A stretch of DNA of 22,479 bases from Promethearchaeota archaeon (GTDB lineage: Archaea; Asgardarchaeota; Lokiarchaeia; Sigyniarchaeales; SOKP01), in NCBI GenBank assembly GCA_016840165.1, contig JAEOSU010000016.1:1-22479 (forward strand), given 5' to 3'. How positions within the stretch are numbered: position 1 is the first letter of the stretch; each line of letters begins with the position of its first letter. This document shows, piece after piece, positions 13,133 through 22,479 of the stretch. The notes beneath the pieces were generated by a model. The model made no database searches. It saw only the letters and a program-made list of their open reading frames with translations, and was not told the DNA's origin. The translations under genes and the position numbers were made by a program.

Positions 13133-14572
13133 ATGAATCCAGCCTTTATAAAAAATTATTCAGAATTAATTCCACCATCTCTTACTGAATCTCAATTATT
13201 GCTTAGAACGACAATTTTGAATGCTTTAGAATTGGCAATAAATTCAGTTATGCCAAAAAATCTAATGGCCAAAGCATTAAAAATAGAAAATGGGAAGCTA
13301 ATTATTCAAAATAATCAATTTTCTCTAAAGAAATTCAAAGATATATGCATAATTGGAGGGGGTAAAGCCGTAGCTCATATGACTGCATATTTGGAAAAAT
13401 TGCTCTCAAATGTCTCAGGTATTAAATATAAAGGCATAATAAATGTTCCTGAAAATTTATCTATAGATGATTTAGAATTAAGCGAATCAATACAGATTAA
13501 TTTTGCCTCTCATCCATTACCAAATGAATCTGGCGTCATTGGAGTGCATAAGATGATGGAATTGATCAATTCGAGTTCCAAAAAGAGTCTAATATTATTT
13601 TTAGTATCAGGGGGCGGTTCTGCTCTATTACCCTTACCGAGAGGAGAGATTCAACTTAAAGACCTCCAAGCAATTAACGAATTGCTTTTAGACTCTGGGG
13701 CTTCTATTCATGAAATAAACGTGATAAGAAAGCATCTTTCTGATCTGAAAGGAGGAAATTTAGCGCGAAAAATTTTTGAGGCGAATAAAGGCACCCTTAT
13801 TTCATTAATAATCTCTGACGTGGTTGGTAATAATTTAGATTCTATTGCTTCTGGACCATCGGTAGCAGACTCTTCGACCTTTAAAGATGTTTTTACAATT
13901 TTAAATAAATATACACTATTTGATAAAGTTCCGAATTCTATTCACTCCTTGGTAGAGGAGGGGCTAAATAACAAAGCATTAGAGACTCCAAAATTAGGAG
14001 ATAAGTGTTTCGATAACGTTCATAATTATCTTATAGGGAGTATAGAAACTGGAGTTCTAGCTATTAAAAATCTTTTGAAAAAAGAAGGATATACGGTCAA
14101 TTACTTCTCAGATACAATCACAGGAGAGGCAAAAGTATTTGGAGAGAGACTTTTCAATAAAAGTATAGCTGAATTCAGAAATCATCATAATTGGAGTAAA
14201 AGATATGCATTAATTGGAACCGGAGAACTCACAGTTACAATTAAAGGAAAGGGAATTGGGGGAAGAAATCAGGAGATGCTCTTAGGTTTTCTGAATAAAG
14301 CGATAGATACTAAAATTAATAATAATTTCTGTATTATAGCTGCAAACCTTGATGGCATTGAAGGAAATAGTAATGCGATGGGGGCATTAGTAGATAATGA
14401 AGTGTGCAAAAAAGCACTTGAGTTAAATCTCAATATAACTAAATACCTAAATCATAATGATTCTAATTCTGCATTTAACTTGTTAGGTACTGAAATAATT
14501 ACTGGTCCTACAGGCTGTAATGTGAATGATATAATGATTTTTCTTTATGGAAATTACTCTAAGGAGAGATAA
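13133..14572 (+). CDS. Glycerate 2-kinase (MOFRL/DUF4147 family)
   Basis: GGGKA, SHPLP, SGGGSAL, NVIRKHLSDLKGG, ISDVVG, IASGP, GGRNQE, TGPTGCNVND. Confidence 0.93.
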   Translation: MNPAFIKNYSELIPPSLTESQLLLRTTILNALELAINSVMPKNLMAKALKIENGKLIIQNNQFSLKKFKDICIIGGGKAVAHMTAYLEKLLSNVSGIKYKGIINVPENLSIDDLELSESIQINFASHPLPNESGVIGVHKMMELINSSSKKSLILFLVSGGGSALLPLPRGEIQLKDLQAINELLLDSGASIHEINVIRKHLSDLKGGNLARKIFEANKGTLISLIISDVVGNNLDSIASGPSVADSSTFKDVFTILNKYTLFDKVPNSIHSLVEEGLNNKALETPKLGDKCFDNVHNYLIGSIETGVLAIKNLLKKEGYTVNYFSDTITGEAKVFGERLFNKSIAEFRNHHNWSKRYALIGTGELTVTIKGKGIGGRNQEMLLGFLNKAIDTKINNNFCIIAANLDGIEGNSNAMGALVDNEVCKKALELNLNITKYLNHNDSNSAFNLLGTEIITGPTGCNVNDIMIFLYGNYSKER

Positions 14573-14576
14573 TTAC

Positions 14577-14789
14577 TTGAAAGATAATCGATTTGAAAAA
14601 ATTCGTATTAGAAACACAAAAGATCATTTTATCCTTACGTGCCCTGTATGTGGTTATTCATTTCGCCGAGAGATGGATCCTAAAAATAGAAAAAGTAAAT
14701 GGAACCGATGTCCGATGTGTGGTTATAAATGGAACCGTCCCGATTTCGTCGACAATAATTATAATTCTTCAGATAAAAAATTCTTATAA
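14577..14789 (+). CDS. Small zinc-ribbon protein
   Basis: CPVCGY...CPMCGY double CxxC; likely TTG start at 14577 after AAGGAG (the track gives ATG 14547, which overlaps glycerate kinase). Confidence 0.75.
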   Translation: MKDNRFEKIRIRNTKDHFILTCPVCGYSFRREMDPKNRKSKWNRCPMCGYKWNRPDFVDNNYNSSDKKFL

Positions 14790-14903: not shown

Positions 14904-17072
14904 ATGGCACGAAAGAAAGATAAGAAAAAGAAAGAGCCTAGATTTGGCTGGGGAAGCGAAGAAGTAGGTGAAGAAAAAGTAGCTGAAGGTTTAAGGCGCA
15001 CAGAAATGGATGAAGGAAAGGTGCGATTAGTTGATAGAGACATTTCAACACCTGTAATCGAGACCTATGATGCTGATACTGGAGAACTAGAAGGTTCTAT
15101 ACTCTTAAAGGATGGAAATCGGGAAGGCTTACTTGGTTTAGTAAAGATCGATGAAGCTGTGGACGTAGATTTAGATCATAATGCAAATATTGAATCAATA
15201 AATTTTACTGGAAAACTCAATGTCGAAAATCCAAGTAAGAAAGATAGAATTTGGGACATAGATATTGAGTTAAAAAATATTGAAGGCACCAATTTAGAGT
15301 CAAATGAGATTAAGATTCGGGAATTAGGTACAGATGACGATACCAATTTATATAGTGAAGATTTTTCAATTACAGGAGATGCAAAGAACCTACTTTTAAT
15401 TAAAGAATACGTAAATACTCTCCCAGATGCAGATAGTGTTTTAAACCTACGGGATATCGAAACAGATCTTATGCGCTCAAAAGATAAGTCAAGTAAAGTC
15501 GGAAAAAATGTCAAAGAAAGAAAAGTTGAAGAAACCAACGAATCTTACGATTTAGACGAGGAAGATGAGGAGGAAGAAGAAGAAGATGAGGACTTAATGA
15601 CCGACGGAGGAATTGACGCTGATGATTATTCTCTCCAATCATTTGGAATCTCCATTGACAAAGAAAATATTGTTACATTTGCTATTGCTCTCTATAGTTT
15701 ATATGATAAGCCTATTAACGATCTAAAAATAGTAAAAACAATCCCTGCGGATTTCGCTAATCCAATTATAGGGGAAACAACCGAAGGGCGTGGAGAAGTT
15801 GAGGGTAATAAAATTGTATGGAGCATTGACAAATTGGTACCTGAAACCACAGTTTTAATGAAATTTAGCTGCTCTATTATGGTGACTGACATCACTAAAA
15901 GAAGAACTGGACCAATTGAAGTGACTTACAAAGCCAGCTCTTCATTTGCAGGCGGTTTAGATATAGATAAGTATGATGCCTATACCAGGAACAAATTTTA
16001 TGTGGATACTGTTGAAAGAGATGAAGAACCGGGCGTTTGGGATTGTAAATTAGTGTTTGAAAACCCCTCTGAATTTATCCTTCAATTATTTAATGCTGAT
16101 GTCTACTCTCCGGAAGATGAATCCGAAAAGTATGTTGATATCGACCCCAAAGATGTCTCATTGTTACCAGCTGGAGCGCAATGGCATTCTAAGAAATGGA
16201 GATTTGAATCAGAGGAGTTACCGGCATTTAGAAAGAAATTGGAATTTCGTGTAATGCCTGATTTTCAGACTAATGTGAGTGGGAGCATCTCGGTATCTGA
16301 TGTTATTTTAGAAATAGCTAGTATCACTGGAGATATGTCTTACGATATCACACAAGTCCCAACCTATAAGGAACAGGATGTGGTTGCTAAACTTAAAATT
16401 ATTAACAATGGATCTGCGCCACTGAACGAAATTTCAGTTGCTCAACAATATTTCACAAATGAATTTAAACCTCCAAGTGCGAGCGAAGTGACCCTAATTT
16501 GGGATGGTGAAGAGGTAGATATAAATTCGAGTTCTGTGAATTTTGATAATAGCGTTTTCAAAATCTCTTTAACCGACTTAAGAAATTCAGATACTGGCCT
16601 GTTAATGCCGGAATCAATATTAGAATTTGAATATCCTATTCACAGTGTCAATCCAGTAAAAGAAGCTACATTTGAGTCAGATATTATCTATTTTGCGAAT
16701 ACATTTCCCTTATCTCAAGAACTTGAATTTAGACCAGAAGTACCTATTATTGAAGCCTTACATTTAAGGAGAAGGTTCAGAATAGGAAAGGAAGTAGTAC
16801 CAATTGGTGCATTAGGCAAATACCAAATCATTTTAACACTTGAAAACATTGGTACAGCACCTTTGCAGAATGTAGTGTTAATGGATAAAGTACCGGACAA
16901 CTTTGAATATGGAAGATATTCGGGCGGTAAACCTCAGATAACAGACGAAGTTGGAGAAGATACCTTGAAATGGACCATTGATTTATTGAATGCTGATGAA
17001 AAATTGGAAATCACCTATGAGATAAGCGGTACAGGAGAGTATAGTCCAAGTGATGCTCAGCTAGGATTATAG
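14904..17072 (+). CDS. Multi-beta-sandwich protein with candidate mu-homology (AP-mu/delta-COP-like) domain and C-terminal Ig/DUF11-like domains
   Basis: 722-aa ORF, clearly coding, no signal peptide or TM segment. Blocks VKIDEAVDVDLDHNANIESINFTGKL, INDLKIVKTIPADFANPIIGETTEG...KIVWSI...LMKF and GPIEVTYK...GGLDIDKYDAY resemble MHD blocks in order. The product call is by eye. Confidence 0.55.
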   Translation: MARKKDKKKKEPRFGWGSEEVGEEKVAEGLRRTEMDEGKVRLVDRDISTPVIETYDADTGELEGSILLKDGNREGLLGLVKIDEAVDVDLDHNANIESINFTGKLNVENPSKKDRIWDIDIELKNIEGTNLESNEIKIRELGTDDDTNLYSEDFSITGDAKNLLLIKEYVNTLPDADSVLNLRDIETDLMRSKDKSSKVGKNVKERKVEETNESYDLDEEDEEEEEEDEDLMTDGGIDADDYSLQSFGISIDKENIVTFAIALYSLYDKPINDLKIVKTIPADFANPIIGETTEGRGEVEGNKIVWSIDKLVPETTVLMKFSCSIMVTDITKRRTGPIEVTYKASSSFAGGLDIDKYDAYTRNKFYVDTVERDEEPGVWDCKLVFENPSEFILQLFNADVYSPEDESEKYVDIDPKDVSLLPAGAQWHSKKWRFESEELPAFRKKLEFRVMPDFQTNVSGSISVSDVILEIASITGDMSYDITQVPTYKEQDVVAKLKIINNGSAPLNEISVAQQYFTNEFKPPSASEVTLIWDGEEVDINSSSVNFDNSVFKISLTDLRNSDTGLLMPESILEFEYPIHSVNPVKEATFESDIIYFANTFPLSQELEFRPEVPIIEALHLRRRFRIGKEVVPIGALGKYQIILTLENIGTAPLQNVVLMDKVPDNFEYGRYSGGKPQITDEVGEDTLKWTIDLLNADEKLEITYEISGTGEYSPSDAQLGL

Positions 17073-17185: not shown

Positions 17186-18853
17186 ATGCCTGAAAAAGAT
17201 AAGAACTTCGATCTCAACTGGATGTTTGAATGTCCTGATGCTATTTTAACATGTTCGGTATTACACTGTGGAGATCAGTCATATTTTGTGTTCGGAGGGC
17301 ATGATAAAACACTCTATCTTATGGATCAAGAATTAACCATCTTAGATTCCATTACATTTGATGGTTGGTGTCGATGCAGTTACCCTATTGACATAACTGG
17401 AGACGGTTGCGATGAAATTTTAGTGGGTGCTGGGGATGGCAATTTTTTAGTGGTTAAATTTGTAAAGGGCTTAAACAAATTAGCCGGTATTATGAATTAT
17501 AAGATTACTAAAAAAGTTTTATGTGTTACCGCTGGAGACTTCACTCGAGATGGTAATATTGAACTAATTTTAGGGAGTGAAGATAAGACTCTTAAGATCT
17601 TTGAAAATATTGAGGCTAAAGAACCGAAGTTTACTCTTTATTACGATTCTTGGGTAACAGCTTGCGCATTAGGATACTTAAAGTTATCGGAGAACAATAG
17701 TCCAATATTTGGATTATTAGTAGGTACTAAAAACGGAGATCTCCAACTAGTCCAATTTGAAAATAACCAACCGGATATTATTTGGCAGAAAAGTATTGGA
17801 GCCCAGATAAACGTGGTTGCTATCGGTGATGTTACAAATGATGGTTATCATGAAATAGTAATAGGTACCGACGATTCAAAATTAACCATCTTAAATAGTG
17901 AAGGAGAGGCTCTAAACTCAATAGAAATTGAAGAAGGGCGTCCTATTTCCATAAAATTAGATGATATCGATGGTGATAATGCAAAAGAAATCTTAGTTGG
18001 CTGTGCTGATGGCTCATTAAGAATATATCACAATCCCAAACTAAATTCATCTGATATTGAATTAAAATGGAAAACCTCAACCTCATCCTCCATAAAAATC
18101 GTCTCCTCAATGAAAGATCCAGAAAAAGGATTAGCAAGCATTCTTTATGGAGGTTATGATCGAAGTATTCGTTGCATCTCAGATTGTGAATGGGGTGAAA
18201 AACCAACCTTAGATATACCATATAACATTATAGTTTCTGAAAAGCAACCAAAAGAAAAAGAAAAGCCAGTAGAAGAATTGATAAAACTTGAGACTGTGCC
18301 TACAAACATTAGAGAATACATTTTGAAAATTTTAATCGATAAAAGAATCATTGAAGGAATTGCCAATGATTTAGTTAAAAGAGGCTATGTAAAGGAGAAA
18401 GTTGTTGAAGAATTTGAAAAAATGTTAACTCAAAAATCGGTTAATATCGAACAGAAAGAATTTCTTATATGGGACATACCAAAGGAAAAAGTAGATAAAG
18501 GCCTTGTTGTTCCTAGTAAAGAAGATATCAAGAGTAAAAAAATTACTCCAATAGTCATTGAGGGAGATATTGAAGAGAAAGGAACCACATTGATAGATGC
18601 ATTAAAGAAAGAAACAGAGGGAATTAAAAGTTCTCAATCTTCAATTAAAAATGAAAATTTAAGGTATATTATTATTGATTATCTGGAGAGAAATAATATC
18701 GTAGCTACTAAAGGGAAAATTGTGGATGATATTATAATTCTTGGCTATGATAAAAAGACTGTCAGTGATTTGATCGAAGTTATGAAGGAAGAGGGTAAAA
18801 TTTTATACTCTCGTTCTGAACCAAAAGGCTGGATGCTTAATACTGGAGAATAA
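17186..18853 (+). CDS. Cytoplasmic FG-GAP/VCBS-type beta-propeller (BBS2/ITFG2-like) with C-terminal winged-helix domain(s)
   Basis: Four DxxxDxxxEIxxG repeats (DITGDGCDEILVG, DFTRDGNIELILG, DVTNDGYHEIVIG, DIDGDNAKEILVG); no signal peptide; C-terminal IIDYLERN...TKGKIVDD...GYDKKTVSDLIEVMKEEGKILYS...GW. Confidence 0.75.
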   Translation: MPEKDKNFDLNWMFECPDAILTCSVLHCGDQSYFVFGGHDKTLYLMDQELTILDSITFDGWCRCSYPIDITGDGCDEILVGAGDGNFLVVKFVKGLNKLAGIMNYKITKKVLCVTAGDFTRDGNIELILGSEDKTLKIFENIEAKEPKFTLYYDSWVTACALGYLKLSENNSPIFGLLVGTKNGDLQLVQFENNQPDIIWQKSIGAQINVVAIGDVTNDGYHEIVIGTDDSKLTILNSEGEALNSIEIEEGRPISIKLDDIDGDNAKEILVGCADGSLRIYHNPKLNSSDIELKWKTSTSSSIKIVSSMKDPEKGLASILYGGYDRSIRCISDCEWGEKPTLDIPYNIIVSEKQPKEKEKPVEELIKLETVPTNIREYILKILIDKRIIEGIANDLVKRGYVKEKVVEEFEKMLTQKSVNIEQKEFLIWDIPKEKVDKGLVVPSKEDIKSKKITPIVIEGDIEEKGTTLIDALKKETEGIKSSQSSIKNENLRYIIIDYLERNNIVATKGKIVDDIIILGYDKKTVSDLIEVMKEEGKILYSRSEPKGWMLNTGE

Positions 18854-18864
18854 TCTATATATCA

Positions 18865-19296
18865 CTAAAAAAAACTTTTTATTTCTTCAGTAAACGGTTC
18901 GAATTGATCTAATTCTGTAAAATCCTTATTAGAAAAAGTGGTAACGAATAAACTTAAGATTGGTTCAACTTTTTCAAAAAATCTTTTAACCACTTTATCT
19001 GTATCTTTCTTTGGCTTATTGATTAAACCGTATAATATTACAGGTTCTTCGTAATTACAATCCATCGCTTTTACTTGAGCTAATTTAAAAACAAATAGAA
19101 TCTTATCAGATTCTAAATATTCTAAAGAAACGTTATTAAATGCATTAGTCGCAAATGAATTTATCGCAGATATAAATGCTCCTCGCAAATCTTTACTTTT
19201 TTCTTGGATCTCTTTGATAGTTGATAACTTTTTGAATTTATGTTTAACTAGCACAAATCCCCTAAAAACAATCCCTAACTCAAATAAGTCTTTCAT
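18865..19296 (-). CDS. Standalone longin-domain protein
   Basis: Longin-type topology: ELGIVFRGFVLV beta hairpin, DLRGAFISAINSFA helix, strands, terminal FEPFTEEIKSFF helix. ATG 19296 preferred over the track start at 19329. Confidence 0.7.
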   Translation of the reverse strand: MKDLFELGIVFRGFVLVKHKFKKLSTIKEIQEKSKDLRGAFISAINSFATNAFNNVSLEYLESDKILFVFKLAQVKAMDCNYEEPVILYGLINKPKKDTDKVVKRFFEKVEPILSLFVTTFSNKDFTELDQFEPFTEEIKSFF

Positions 19297-19412
19297 AACG
19301 GATATTTTCACTAATTTAAATTGGCTCACGATAAAAGCTATTAAAATAAAAAAAATTCATGTATTTAATTTTACTCAAATGCAAGAATTCTTAATGGGAA
19401 TGGGAAAAAGGA

Positions 19413-20712: not shown

Positions 20713-21255
20713 TTAAATAGTTTTAAATTGTAAATATAATCGTTCAATAATTGCATTAAATGCATTAACTACTCCTTGCCCTGTTTTAGCAGATGTGAAA
20801 AAAAAATTCAGAAATTTATATTCATCTGCAAGTGTTTTAATTTTTGATTTATTTATACTATTTTCATCTATTAAATCAACTTTATTAGCAAATAAAACGA
20901 TAGGAATGTCTCCACAATTCTTTTTTATTACTTCATACCAGTTTTCTATATGTGTAAAACTCTTCTTACCAAGTGTATTTTCTTCAAGACTATATACGAT
21001 AATAGCTGCTTTACTCTCTTTATAAAAGAGTGGTTGCAGAAAATTAAAATCTTCTTGACCTGCAATGTCCCAAAACACTAATCTGATTAAATCTCCGTTA
21101 AATTTTTTATTATATTTCGAAAATTGAGCGCCAATGGTTTTCACATAATCCTTTTCAAATGTTCCTTTGGTGAATTTTTTGATTAAGGAGGTTTTACCAA
21201 CCGCTCCATCTCCAACAATAACAATTTTAAATCGATATGTCTCAGAATTTTCCAT
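20713..21255 (-). CDS. Rab-like small GTPase (Ras superfamily)
   Basis: G1 GDGAVGKTS, G2 YVKTIG, G3 WDIAGQE, G4 NKVD, G5 TSAK; no C-terminal Cys motif. Confidence 0.95.
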   Translation of the reverse strand: MENSETYRFKIVIVGDGAVGKTSLIKKFTKGTFEKDYVKTIGAQFSKYNKKFNGDLIRLVFWDIAGQEDFNFLQPLFYKESKAAIIVYSLEENTLGKKSFTHIENWYEVIKKNCGDIPIVLFANKVDLIDENSINKSKIKTLADEYKFLNFFFTSAKTGQGVVNAFNAIIERLYLQFKTI

Positions 21256-21349: not shown

Positions 21350-22479
21350 TTATACGTATTCTATATTTTTTCCCAAAATAAAAACTTCTGTAATCAATGA
21401 TTCAAGCGATGGAATACTGTCTGATTGAATTATTTTACTTTTTTTGAGAGAGTTCTGCAAAGATTTCCAAATAAGACTCTCATTCTGTATAGATTCGAGA
21501 AATTGCTTAGTTTTACGATGAGCAAAATAAGAGTACCCTTTAAAGATATAACATATTAAAAATGGTTTAAGGGGCATCATAAGAAGAGTATATTGGCCAA
21601 AAACGGCTCTTTCAAGGCCTTCAGAAAATACCTCATTAATAATATAATTTATGGTGGTTAGGAAGCCTCCTAATATATCATCTTCAAAGGAAATATCTTC
21701 TATAAATCTTTTAGAGAACATTAGGTCCCCTCCTTCCGTTAGAATTAATAACATTACAGGTTCTTCTTTTGATGTTTCTTGAAGTTCAATCATCCGTCTT
21801 TTTACCATATTTTCCATTTGCTCATTCAAACCAGTAAGTTCAAAACGCTCAGATAGAGATAGATCTGAGAAATTTATACTCTCCCAAATCTTAGTTAATT
21901 TGAGTAATTCATCATGTTCATATGAGATTTTCATTGCTAATCGTTTCATACCATACGATTCCGCTATTTTTTGAGCTTTAGTTAAAAATCGACGAGCTGA
22001 TTTCGAATCATTCTCTATTAAGGCTAGTTTAGCTTGTAATAGGAATGTCTCACAAAAGACTAAATATGAATGTTGTTTTTCAGCAATATCCAATAACCTG
22101 GAAATATAATAATTAAGTTCATTAAGTACTTCAATATTAGTTTCTATACGATATTCCGTGAGAAGTATATCACAAAGATGGATATGAGCTTTTATAATAA
22201 TGTCAAACTGTGTTGTATCCGTTTCTATAATTTCTTTGAATAATTCTTCTGCTGTTGATTTATCTCGAATTCGAGAACTTGTTTTTAAAATTAGTGCTTT
22301 AGCGAATTTATATCCAAGATTATCTCTATCGCCTCTTTTCTGGTTAATAATGTTTTCCAAACGATGAAAATACTTTTTAGCACGCTCATTATCTCCTTGT
22401 TCAATAGTTATGTCTATTAAACCTTCAATATTACCTTCAATAGAAATAAAACCCTGAGGAATTTGCTTTAAAATATTTA
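21350..22479 (-). CDS. TPR/alpha-solenoid protein with C-terminal longin-like domain; 5' truncated by the window edge
   Basis: The frame stays open upstream of the track TTG (22360) to the window end (...EQGDNERAKKYFHRLEN...). TPR-like helices (ARRFLTKAQKIAESYG); C-terminal LLILTEGGDLMFS...DDILGGFLTTINYIINEVF longin pattern. Confidence 0.8.
   Translation of the reverse strand, partial: NILKQIPQGFISIEGNIEGLIDITIEQGDNERAKKYFHRLENIINQKRGDRDNLGYKFAKALILKTSSRIRDKSTAEELFKEIIETDTTQFDIIIKAHIHLCDILLTEYRIETNIEVLNELNYYISRLLDIAEKQHSYLVFCETFLLQAKLALIENDSKSARRFLTKAQKIAESYGMKRLAMKISYEHDELLKLTKIWESINFSDLSLSERFELTGLNEQMENMVKRRMIELQETSKEEPVMLLILTEGGDLMFSKRFIEDISFEDDILGGFLTTINYIINEVFSEGLERAVFGQYTLLMMPLKPFLICYIFKGYSYFAHRKTKQFLESIQNESLIWKSLQNSLKKSKIIQSDSIPSLESLITEVFILGKNIEYV

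Follow-up and report, generated by a model that had tools for sequence, protein, structure and literature searches.

A probable mu-homology domain in a cytosolic Asgard archaeal protein family with three immunoglobulin-like domains

The stretch of DNA considered here, referred to below as the window, consists of positions 1 to 22,479 of contig JAEOSU010000016.1 from a Promethearchaeota archaeon (assembly GCA_016840165.1); it is AT-rich, with a G+C content of about 31-32%, and carries genes typical of Asgard archaea, including those for an LSM protein, a Ras-family GTPase and a BBS7/ITFG2-like FG-GAP propeller. The present work concerns one gene in the window, P0001, whose 722-residue product is very probably a cytosolic Asgard (Lokiarchaeial) protein containing a genuine “mu-homology domain” (MHD) at about residues 73-390 (Table 1). 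Adaptor and coat complexes hold a central place in the endomembrane system of eukaryotes, and where they originate among prokaryotes is uncertain. A previous inspection of the letters of the window, referred to below as the sequence-only reading, had pointed at positions 15135-15983, which correspond to residues 78-360, to three sequence blocks in the order in which they occur in MHDs. Translation of the open reading frame at 14904-17072(+) bears this out: all three blocks lie in that frame in the order given, block 1 at residues 80-107 (nucleotides 15141-15224), block 2 at residues 271-311 together with LMKFS at 318-322 (nucleotides 15714-15869), and block 3 at residues 336-360 (nucleotides 15909-15983).

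Table 1. Position and character of the MHD gene, its predicted domains and the neighbouring genes in the window
Feature	Position (nt)	Strand	Remarks
Small zinc-ribbon gene	14547-14789	+	80 aa, double Cys-x2-Cys; immediately precedes the MHD gene; retained there in orthologous loci L001 and L011
Whole MHD gene (P0001)	14904..17072	+	722-aa cytosolic protein: N-terminal tail, MHD, three Ig-like domains; open reading frame and translation
N-terminal tail, residues 1-72	14904..15119	+	Polybasic stretch; conserved Gly-Trp motif, then acidic residues; TYDxxTGxxEG lead-in
MHD subdomain A, N-terminal part, residues 73-171	15120..15416	+	Six predicted strands (AlphaFold2); block 1, Glu84, Gly103, invariant Asn109
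Lineage-specific insert, residues 176-253	15429..15662	+	Long helix 182-206, then disordered Glu/Asp-rich loop (pLDDT 56-70)
MHD subdomain B, residues 254-344	15663..15935	+	Inserted Ig-like sandwich of DUF11/CLIPPER type; holds block 2; PF00928 positions 130-240
MHD subdomain A, C-terminal return strands, residues 353-390	15960..16073	+	Predicted strands 353-361, 364-371 and 379-387
Ig-like sandwich 1, residues 391-469	16074..16310	+	AlphaFold2 model of 380-722
Ig-like sandwich 2, residues 470-622	16311..16769	+	Resembles pilin, cohesin and CLIPPER domains
Ig-like sandwich 3, residues 623-722	16770..17069	+	DUF11/CLIPPER; conserved C-terminal GxGEYxPSDAQ motif; TIGR01451 match
BBS7/ITFG2-like FG-GAP beta-propeller with helical or winged-helix tail (P0004)	17186..18853	+	PF23743, E 9.5e-23
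Small gene P0125, possibly longin-like	18865..19329	-	154 aa; Atlas lead; orthologue at the same position in L001
Ras/Rab-like small GTPase gene	20713-21255	-	PF00071, E 4e-43
TPR-like protein gene	21350-22477	-	

The resemblance of this protein to known MHDs goes beyond chance, and in sequence comparisons it is visible chiefly at the level of the family. A phmmer search of the whole single P0001 sequence against the PDB gives no match, and the MHDs there are found by the family profile only. An exhaustive search with residues 66-400 among 1.84 billion cluster representatives yielded 202 clusters, and a family profile, A1, was built from 111 regions (P0001 and 110 relatives). Compared with 177,635 PDB sequences, A1 produces 31 matches, all but two of which are AP mu subunits (AP-3, AP-1, AP-2, AP-4) or delta-COP; the best, to an AP mu, has an E-value of 7.5e-5, and the two that are not MHDs stand at ranks 28 and 30 with E-values of 0.13 and 0.19. 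The alignment continues past the Ig-like (immunoglobulin-like) subdomain B of the MHD through the SGLxV-type strand of block 3, where the profile match places the segment GGLDIDKYDAY of P0001 against SGLKVNRLDMY of mu3. A profile made of the N-terminal block alone is matched best, among PDB sequences, by the beginning of the MHD of yeast delta-COP; the two align in register, although the E-value of 0.022 is marginal. The Pfam profile of the domain, PF00928 (Adap_comp_sub), matches P0001 itself with 22.5 bits and an E-value of 8.5e-5, residues 260-364 falling on profile positions 130-240 of 259 (21.7 bits in a six-frame search of the genome), and it matches several relatives with scores above its curated cut-off of 31.6 bits (P0119 34.5, P0040 34.0, P0229 35.2, P0160 40.7 and P0275 34.2 bits). 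Among 43 distant relatives, 19 match PF00928 with E <0.01 (best 1.9e-10), and one matches the muniscin muHD profile (PF10291).

The predicted structure accounts for the domain as a whole. An AlphaFold2 model of residues 66-400, computed from the A1 alignment with no templates, has a predicted local distance difference test score (pLDDT) of 89.9 and a predicted template modelling score (pTM) of 0.81, and lays out six strands, a helix with a low-confidence loop, seven strands and three further strands (6 + 7 + 3). When the model is compared with the PDB by Foldseek, the first 50 matches are all MHDs (mu2, mu1, mu3, delta-COP), with E-values down to 4.5e-9, about 300 aligned columns and template modelling (TM) scores, normalized by target, of up to 0.68. 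An exhaustive aligner run over 48,161 representative chains likewise returns MHDs as its ten best matches, with Z-scores of 13.6-10.4 over 192-210 residues at a root-mean-square deviation (rmsd) of 2.8-3.9. The first of these is mu2 (Z 13.6, 209 residues, rmsd 3.7, model residues 8-329 on chain residues 168-417), and it is accompanied by mu4 (13.4), mu3 (13.3), bovine delta-COP (12.2), mu1 (12.1), the muniscins SGIP1 (11.2) and Syp1 (10.6), and yeast delta-COP (10.4). The alignments with mu2, mu3 and mu1 run from model residue 8 or 9 to 327-329. Single Ig domains rank below the MHDs, beginning with the CLIPPER domain 9ifr_A (Z 10.1) and continuing with pilins, and they cover model residues of about 94-281, that is, subdomain B. 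In a shape search of the ESM Atlas, independent models of relatives superpose on the model at TM-scores of 0.67-0.78, and a eukaryotic delta-COP cluster does so at 0.53 over residues 8-328.

In the model, subdomain A is composed of the six N-terminal strands and the three returning C-terminal strands, with the Ig-like subdomain B inserted between them. AP mu1-4, delta-COP and the muniscins share this topology, and the domain of P0001 is most likely homologous to their MHDs. The MHD that the sequence-only reading had proposed from the three blocks, with its interdigitated arrangement of two subdomains, is thus borne out by the AlphaFold2 model, by Foldseek and by the exhaustive aligner; independent DUF11/CARDB Ig domains, the structural matches that would have told against an MHD, appear below the MHDs of the top ten and match subdomain B only. 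The return strands run from the end of block 3 onward, and since the last three strands lie at 353-387, the domain ends near nucleotide 16073, beyond the end at 15983 given in that reading. Subdomains A and B of P0001 are separated by the insert at residues 176-253. The two conserved blocks of the family (about residues 79-179 and 250-397) are contiguous in most relatives, so the helix with its acidic loop is a feature particular to the Loki orthologues, and the core domain therefore has a length of about 260 residues, which is the size of an MHD.

The MHD is preceded by a short tail and followed by a long Ig-like module. The N-terminal tail is kept in the orthologues, and its TYDxxTGxxEG lead-in is also present in distant subfamilies; the segment could serve as a membrane-binding element or as a self-binding Trp motif. 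Distant paralogues begin with similar hydrophobic-then-basic motifs, for example Phe-Gly followed by runs of Lys/Arg. On the C-terminal side, a second AlphaFold2 model, of residues 380-722 (pLDDT 91.6), contains three Ig-like sandwiches. The second of these aligns with a SpaD pilin domain (VIA Z 13.9, 137 residues, rmsd 2.7) and with the CLIPPER domain 9ifr_A (Z 11.3), and the third gives a match to DUF11 (PF01345) at residues 643-707 with 28.1 bits, above the curated cut-off of 24.6. The GxGEYxPSDAQ motif recurs throughout the family, and the three-Ig module as such is kept in 88 cluster representatives, so that the core of the family is an MHD plus three Ig domains, about 590 residues in its shortest members. 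When the whole model of this region is compared by Foldseek, integrin-alpha legs and pilins come out best; these are generic arrays of Ig domains in tandem, and the likeness to integrin legs is probably a generic match of this kind only. In integrins the alpha legs come after an FG-GAP propeller, and the MHD gene in the window adjoins a propeller gene.

DUF11 domains are usually extracellular, and an extracellular adhesin was considered as a reading of the protein. A hydropathy scan of P0001 and 110 relatives found no signal peptide and no consistent hydrophobic (transmembrane) segment in these 111 members, apart from weak internal segments that the crude scan picked up in 3 of them. The adhesin reading is thereby ruled out, and the family is cytosolic, unlike the classical DUF11 adhesins.

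The distribution of the family is close to universal in Asgard archaea. With A1, members turn up in 252 of 301 Asgard genomes chosen from across the phylum; the figure is 77 of 90 for those of high quality and 65 of 70 for genera, and copy number ranges from one to six per genome. Among the 301 genomes, the profile fails to find the family in one family of genomes of about 1.3-1.4 Mb. More than 350 full-length homologues of about 715-730 residues are available (Promethearchaeota, Lokiarchaeota), the named relatives are all from Asgard archaea, and thirty cluster look-ups returned Asgard names only. The genome to which the window belongs has a second copy of 317 residues, consisting of the MHD plus about 60 residues and lacking the C-terminal three-Ig module (contig C30 of genome G000, 280811-281764, + strand, equivalent to L009:1510-2463; E 1.8e-55 with the family profile, no Pfam match). 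Varied additions occur at the N-termini of other relatives: long proline-rich PPAPPG-type repeats, which are accompanied by a C-terminal zinc-ribbon-like end with Cys-x2-Cys, HEAT repeats, and TPR repeats (P0209, P0210, P0212, P0215, P0221, P0258; P0178, P0222, P0255; P0136). Such variation in sequence suggests that the core of MHD and Ig domains is reused as a module. One ESM Atlas cluster of 52 members, whose 776-residue representative is annotated with DUF11 and AF2028_C (PF27408), superposes on the whole MHD model with 253 residues aligned at a TM-score of 0.67; its label, mostly Thermoplasmatota, comes from 16 members and may reflect mis-binned genomes.

The sequence-only reading went further and took the domain to be delta-COP-like rather than YxxPhi-binding. 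The strongest form of this idea, in which the domain is a Trp-motif-binding MHD orthologous or functionally equivalent to that of delta-COP, is decidedly unlikely. It draws on the only marginal PDB match of the N-terminal block, which is to yeast delta-COP, on the identity of bovine delta-COP, the highest among the structural matches (16%), and on the Atlas shape search, in which the first eukaryotic cluster is delta-COP, while the Z-scores of mu2, mu4 and mu3 exceed that of bovine delta-COP by at least one unit and that of yeast delta-COP by three, and the best sequence matches for subdomain B and the C-terminal strands are the mu subunits of AP-3 and AP-1. The N-terminus of P0001, with its conserved Gly-Trp motif followed by acidic residues, also fits a Trp-binding MHD. 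A separate argument concerned the position of the Tyr-binding Asp of mu2, which is Asp176 in the mu2 numbering, reportedly that of Owen and Evans 1998. Both the structural alignment, with model residue 8 on mu2 residue 168, and the conserved, nearly invariant Glu84 place Lys81 of P0001 there, so that the Lys, and with it the lack of an Asp, was correctly noticed; as a sign of delta-COP it does not hold, because yeast delta-COP has Ser at this position. The column is variable across the 111 members of the family (K19, E16, N12, R10, D9 and others). This lack of conservation means that the column carries no delta-COP signal and that a canonical Tyr pocket is improbable, as the sequence-only reading had held; canonical YxxPhi recognition by the MHD of P0001 is, to judge from this position of the pocket, unlikely.

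The genes around P0001 bear on a second proposal, namely that the protein is a “split” mu/delta subunit whose longin domain is supplied in trans by a nearby gene. In its own taxonomic family, the gene order of glycerate kinase, zinc ribbon, MHD protein, BBS7-like propeller and convergent small protein is kept, with the MHD gene, the propeller and the small convergent gene at 62-72% identity, and the same neighbours can be read from the locus tags of deposited genomes. In a sister family (L016, L017) the gene for the MHD protein remains next to that for the propeller, but the two converge, while in the window they are co-directional; as the orientation differs between two families of the order, the adjacency has survived rearrangement. 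A functional link between the MHD protein and the propeller within the Lokiarchaeales is plausible, and the propeller protein P0004 is a possible partner, as a candidate only. No homologue of the propeller or of P0125 lies within 9 kb of a family member in 7 other Asgard families and 4 distant metagenomic relatives. As a general feature of the window, the genes for the MHD protein, the propeller, P0125 and the GTPase form a local concentration of trafficking-type genes, and the GTPase gene lies directly downstream of the TPR-like gene, 1.4 kb from P0125.

The absence of a longin domain from P0001 itself, which the split proposal presupposes, agrees with what is found. Only 72 residues of low complexity precede the MHD, too short and too low in complexity for a longin domain, and no match to PF01217 (Clat_adaptor_s) occurs in P0001 or in 43 relatives; a Pfam scan and an Atlas search likewise give no longin signal in the N-terminal extension of about 100-140 residues that distinguishes one subfamily. 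The longin to be supplied in trans is harder to find. P0125 has an orthologue with 58% identity at the same position in L001, gives no Pfam or NCBIfam match, and has as its nearest named Atlas cluster one in which the longin family Fuz_longin_1 is present in 34% of members, a weak lead with a score of 0.89 that points to the Fuz/Mon1 type. The longin of sigma and mu subunits, Clat_adaptor_s, has no match in the 99.7%-complete genome, although its absence is not proven, since control genomes gave no match either. The fuller version of the proposal, in which P0125, perhaps with the propeller and the small GTPase 1.4 kb further on, completes the MHD protein as an AP/COPI-like adaptor or proto-coat, is very unlikely: the conserved adjacency and the Atlas lead speak for it, but the neighbourhood is lost in the distant relatives, the family core consists of the MHD and three Ig domains with no recurrent partner gene, and Eme et al. 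2023 (Nature 618:992; PMC10307638) found no protein combining the mu C-terminal domain with a longin, Asgard Adap_comp_sub never being fused to Clat_adaptor_s.

Several points weigh against the assignment of P0001 as an MHD protein. The PF00928 score of P0001 is under the curated cut-off, and the Pfam match spans only subdomain B and the next strand; in relatives the stretch of subdomain B scores as well or better against DUF11, as the sequence-only reading had cautioned for block 2, and some of the sequence signal may be common to CLIPPER-type Ig domains at large. Solved MHDs share only 9-16% identity with the domain, the TM-scores are moderate (0.56-0.68), and the structural evidence consists of predicted models throughout. 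Should the Thermoplasmatota label of the Atlas cluster be correct, the fold also occurs outside Asgard archaea and eukaryotes. The adaptor role discussed below, and any ligand, partner or membrane contact of P0001, are things that we infer. That the protein is instead a cytosolic array of DUF11/CLIPPER Ig sandwiches, with an MHD-like packing reached by convergence or by very remote beta-sandwich ancestry, is nonetheless most improbable, for although subdomain B of the relatives matches DUF11 as strongly as PF00928 and resembles the C-terminal DUF11 domain of P0001, the CLIPPER domain fits subdomain B alone, the C-terminal module is made of three Ig domains akin to those of pilins, cohesin and integrin legs and one Atlas cluster of the same fold bears a foreign label, MHDs take the first ten places among 48,161 chains, with alignments across both subdomains and the return strands, no two-domain protein outside the MHDs comes close in the exhaustive alignment, the PDB sequence matches are MHDs bar two weak cases and extend into the SGLxV-like strand, and the N-terminal block independently matches the start of the delta-COP MHD in register.

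If P0001 is an MHD protein, its role may be considered from its parts. A tentative reading, to which we give rather less than an even chance, is that it is an adaptor-like scaffold with the MHD, the polybasic N-terminus and the Ig-like tail as its binding parts. In this reading, short peptide motifs or partner proteins would be the ligands of the MHD, the protein could be kept at an acidic membrane by its polybasic N-terminus, and additional surfaces for binding would come from the Ig-like tail. As regards the origin of the fold, positions 107-193 of the A1 profile, which represent subdomain B, match the C-terminal DUF11 domain of P0001 itself with an E-value of 4.8e-6, a similarity in sequence that supports a CLIPPER-type origin of subdomain B. 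The likeness of subdomain B to DUF11/CLIPPER domains also points to a way in which the MHD fold may have been put together. It is possible to go further and suppose that the family is the direct ancestor of all eukaryotic MHDs, a DUF11/CLIPPER Ig domain having been inserted into a beta-sandwich in archaea and a longin having been fused to it later, in the eukaryotic stem, and that in the Lokiarchaeales a primitive membrane adaptor or coat module is still formed by the protein together with the adjacent BBS7-like propeller, the longin-like protein and a small GTPase; this larger scenario is unlikely.

The presence of the family in Asgard archaea is not new, since it has already been published as a set of candidate eukaryotic signature proteins (ESPs) defined by Adap_comp_sub (PF00928). 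Eme et al. 2023 report, in section 4.3.1 of their supplement, the mu C-terminal domain in most Asgard phyla, with a sparse distribution, and list 44 Adap_comp_sub candidates in their Table S3. These belong to the same family: DAYTRNKFYVD and WDCKLVF stand unchanged in Lokiarchaeales entries, and all three blocks are present in one from Jordarchaeia. A literature search turned up no mention of an Asgard mu-homology domain in main texts, the prior report being in that supplement. Their evidence consisted of Pfam matches and their distribution was called sparse, whereas the family profile used in the present work matches 252 of 301 genomes and is accompanied by a modelled fold and a full architecture. 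What is added here is the complete predicted MHD topology, the architecture, the near-universal Asgard distribution and the CLIPPER-like nature of subdomain B, together with the rejection of the delta-COP and split-mu proposals. The published Pfam-level hint is now firmer in that the whole MHD fold, and not one Ig-like piece, is predicted with high confidence, and the family offers a concrete protein for binding and localisation work in cultured Lokiarchaeia.

Comparison with the known MHD systems places P0001 among them with an architecture of its own. The MHDs of AP-2 mu2 and of the AP-1, AP-3 and AP-4 mu subunits (PDB 9fiw, 4ikn, 4mdr, 1w63) have the same interdigitated fold (Z 12.1-13.6 over 193-210 residues), are similar to the family at the profile level over subdomain B and the SGLxV-type strand, and carry the conserved Glu of strand 1 in the same register. 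P0001 differs from them in that it has no N-terminal longin, its MHD is not C-terminal, a helix and acidic insert separate the subdomains, an unconserved Lys stands at the position of the Tyr-binding Asp176, and three extra Ig-like domains follow the MHD; we know of no adaptin-trunk partners of P0001, no Adaptin_N search having been made. The MHD of delta-COP (PDB 4o8q, 5fjw) has the same fold (Z 12.2 and 10.4), its strands 1-2 are in register with the N-terminal block, and it shares with P0001 the lack of a canonical Tyr-binding Asp, but P0001 is no closer to it than to AP mu and has neither its longin nor the context of the COPI F-subcomplex. The muniscins (SGIP1, 5awr; Syp1, 3g9h; PF10291; Z 11.2 and 10.6) resemble P0001 in having an MHD without a longin; the muniscin MHD is a protein-interaction hub. 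In the muniscins it is C-terminal, behind an F-BAR domain or a linker, whereas in P0001 it is N-terminal and is followed by Ig domains. The last domain of P0001 is a member of the DUF11/CLIPPER group (PF01345; PDB 9ifr), which subdomain B resembles both in sequence, in the relatives, and in structure. CLIPPER domains are typically repeats of extracellular adhesins, whereas P0001 has no export signal, and one such domain is, in the model, inserted into a sandwich to form an MHD.

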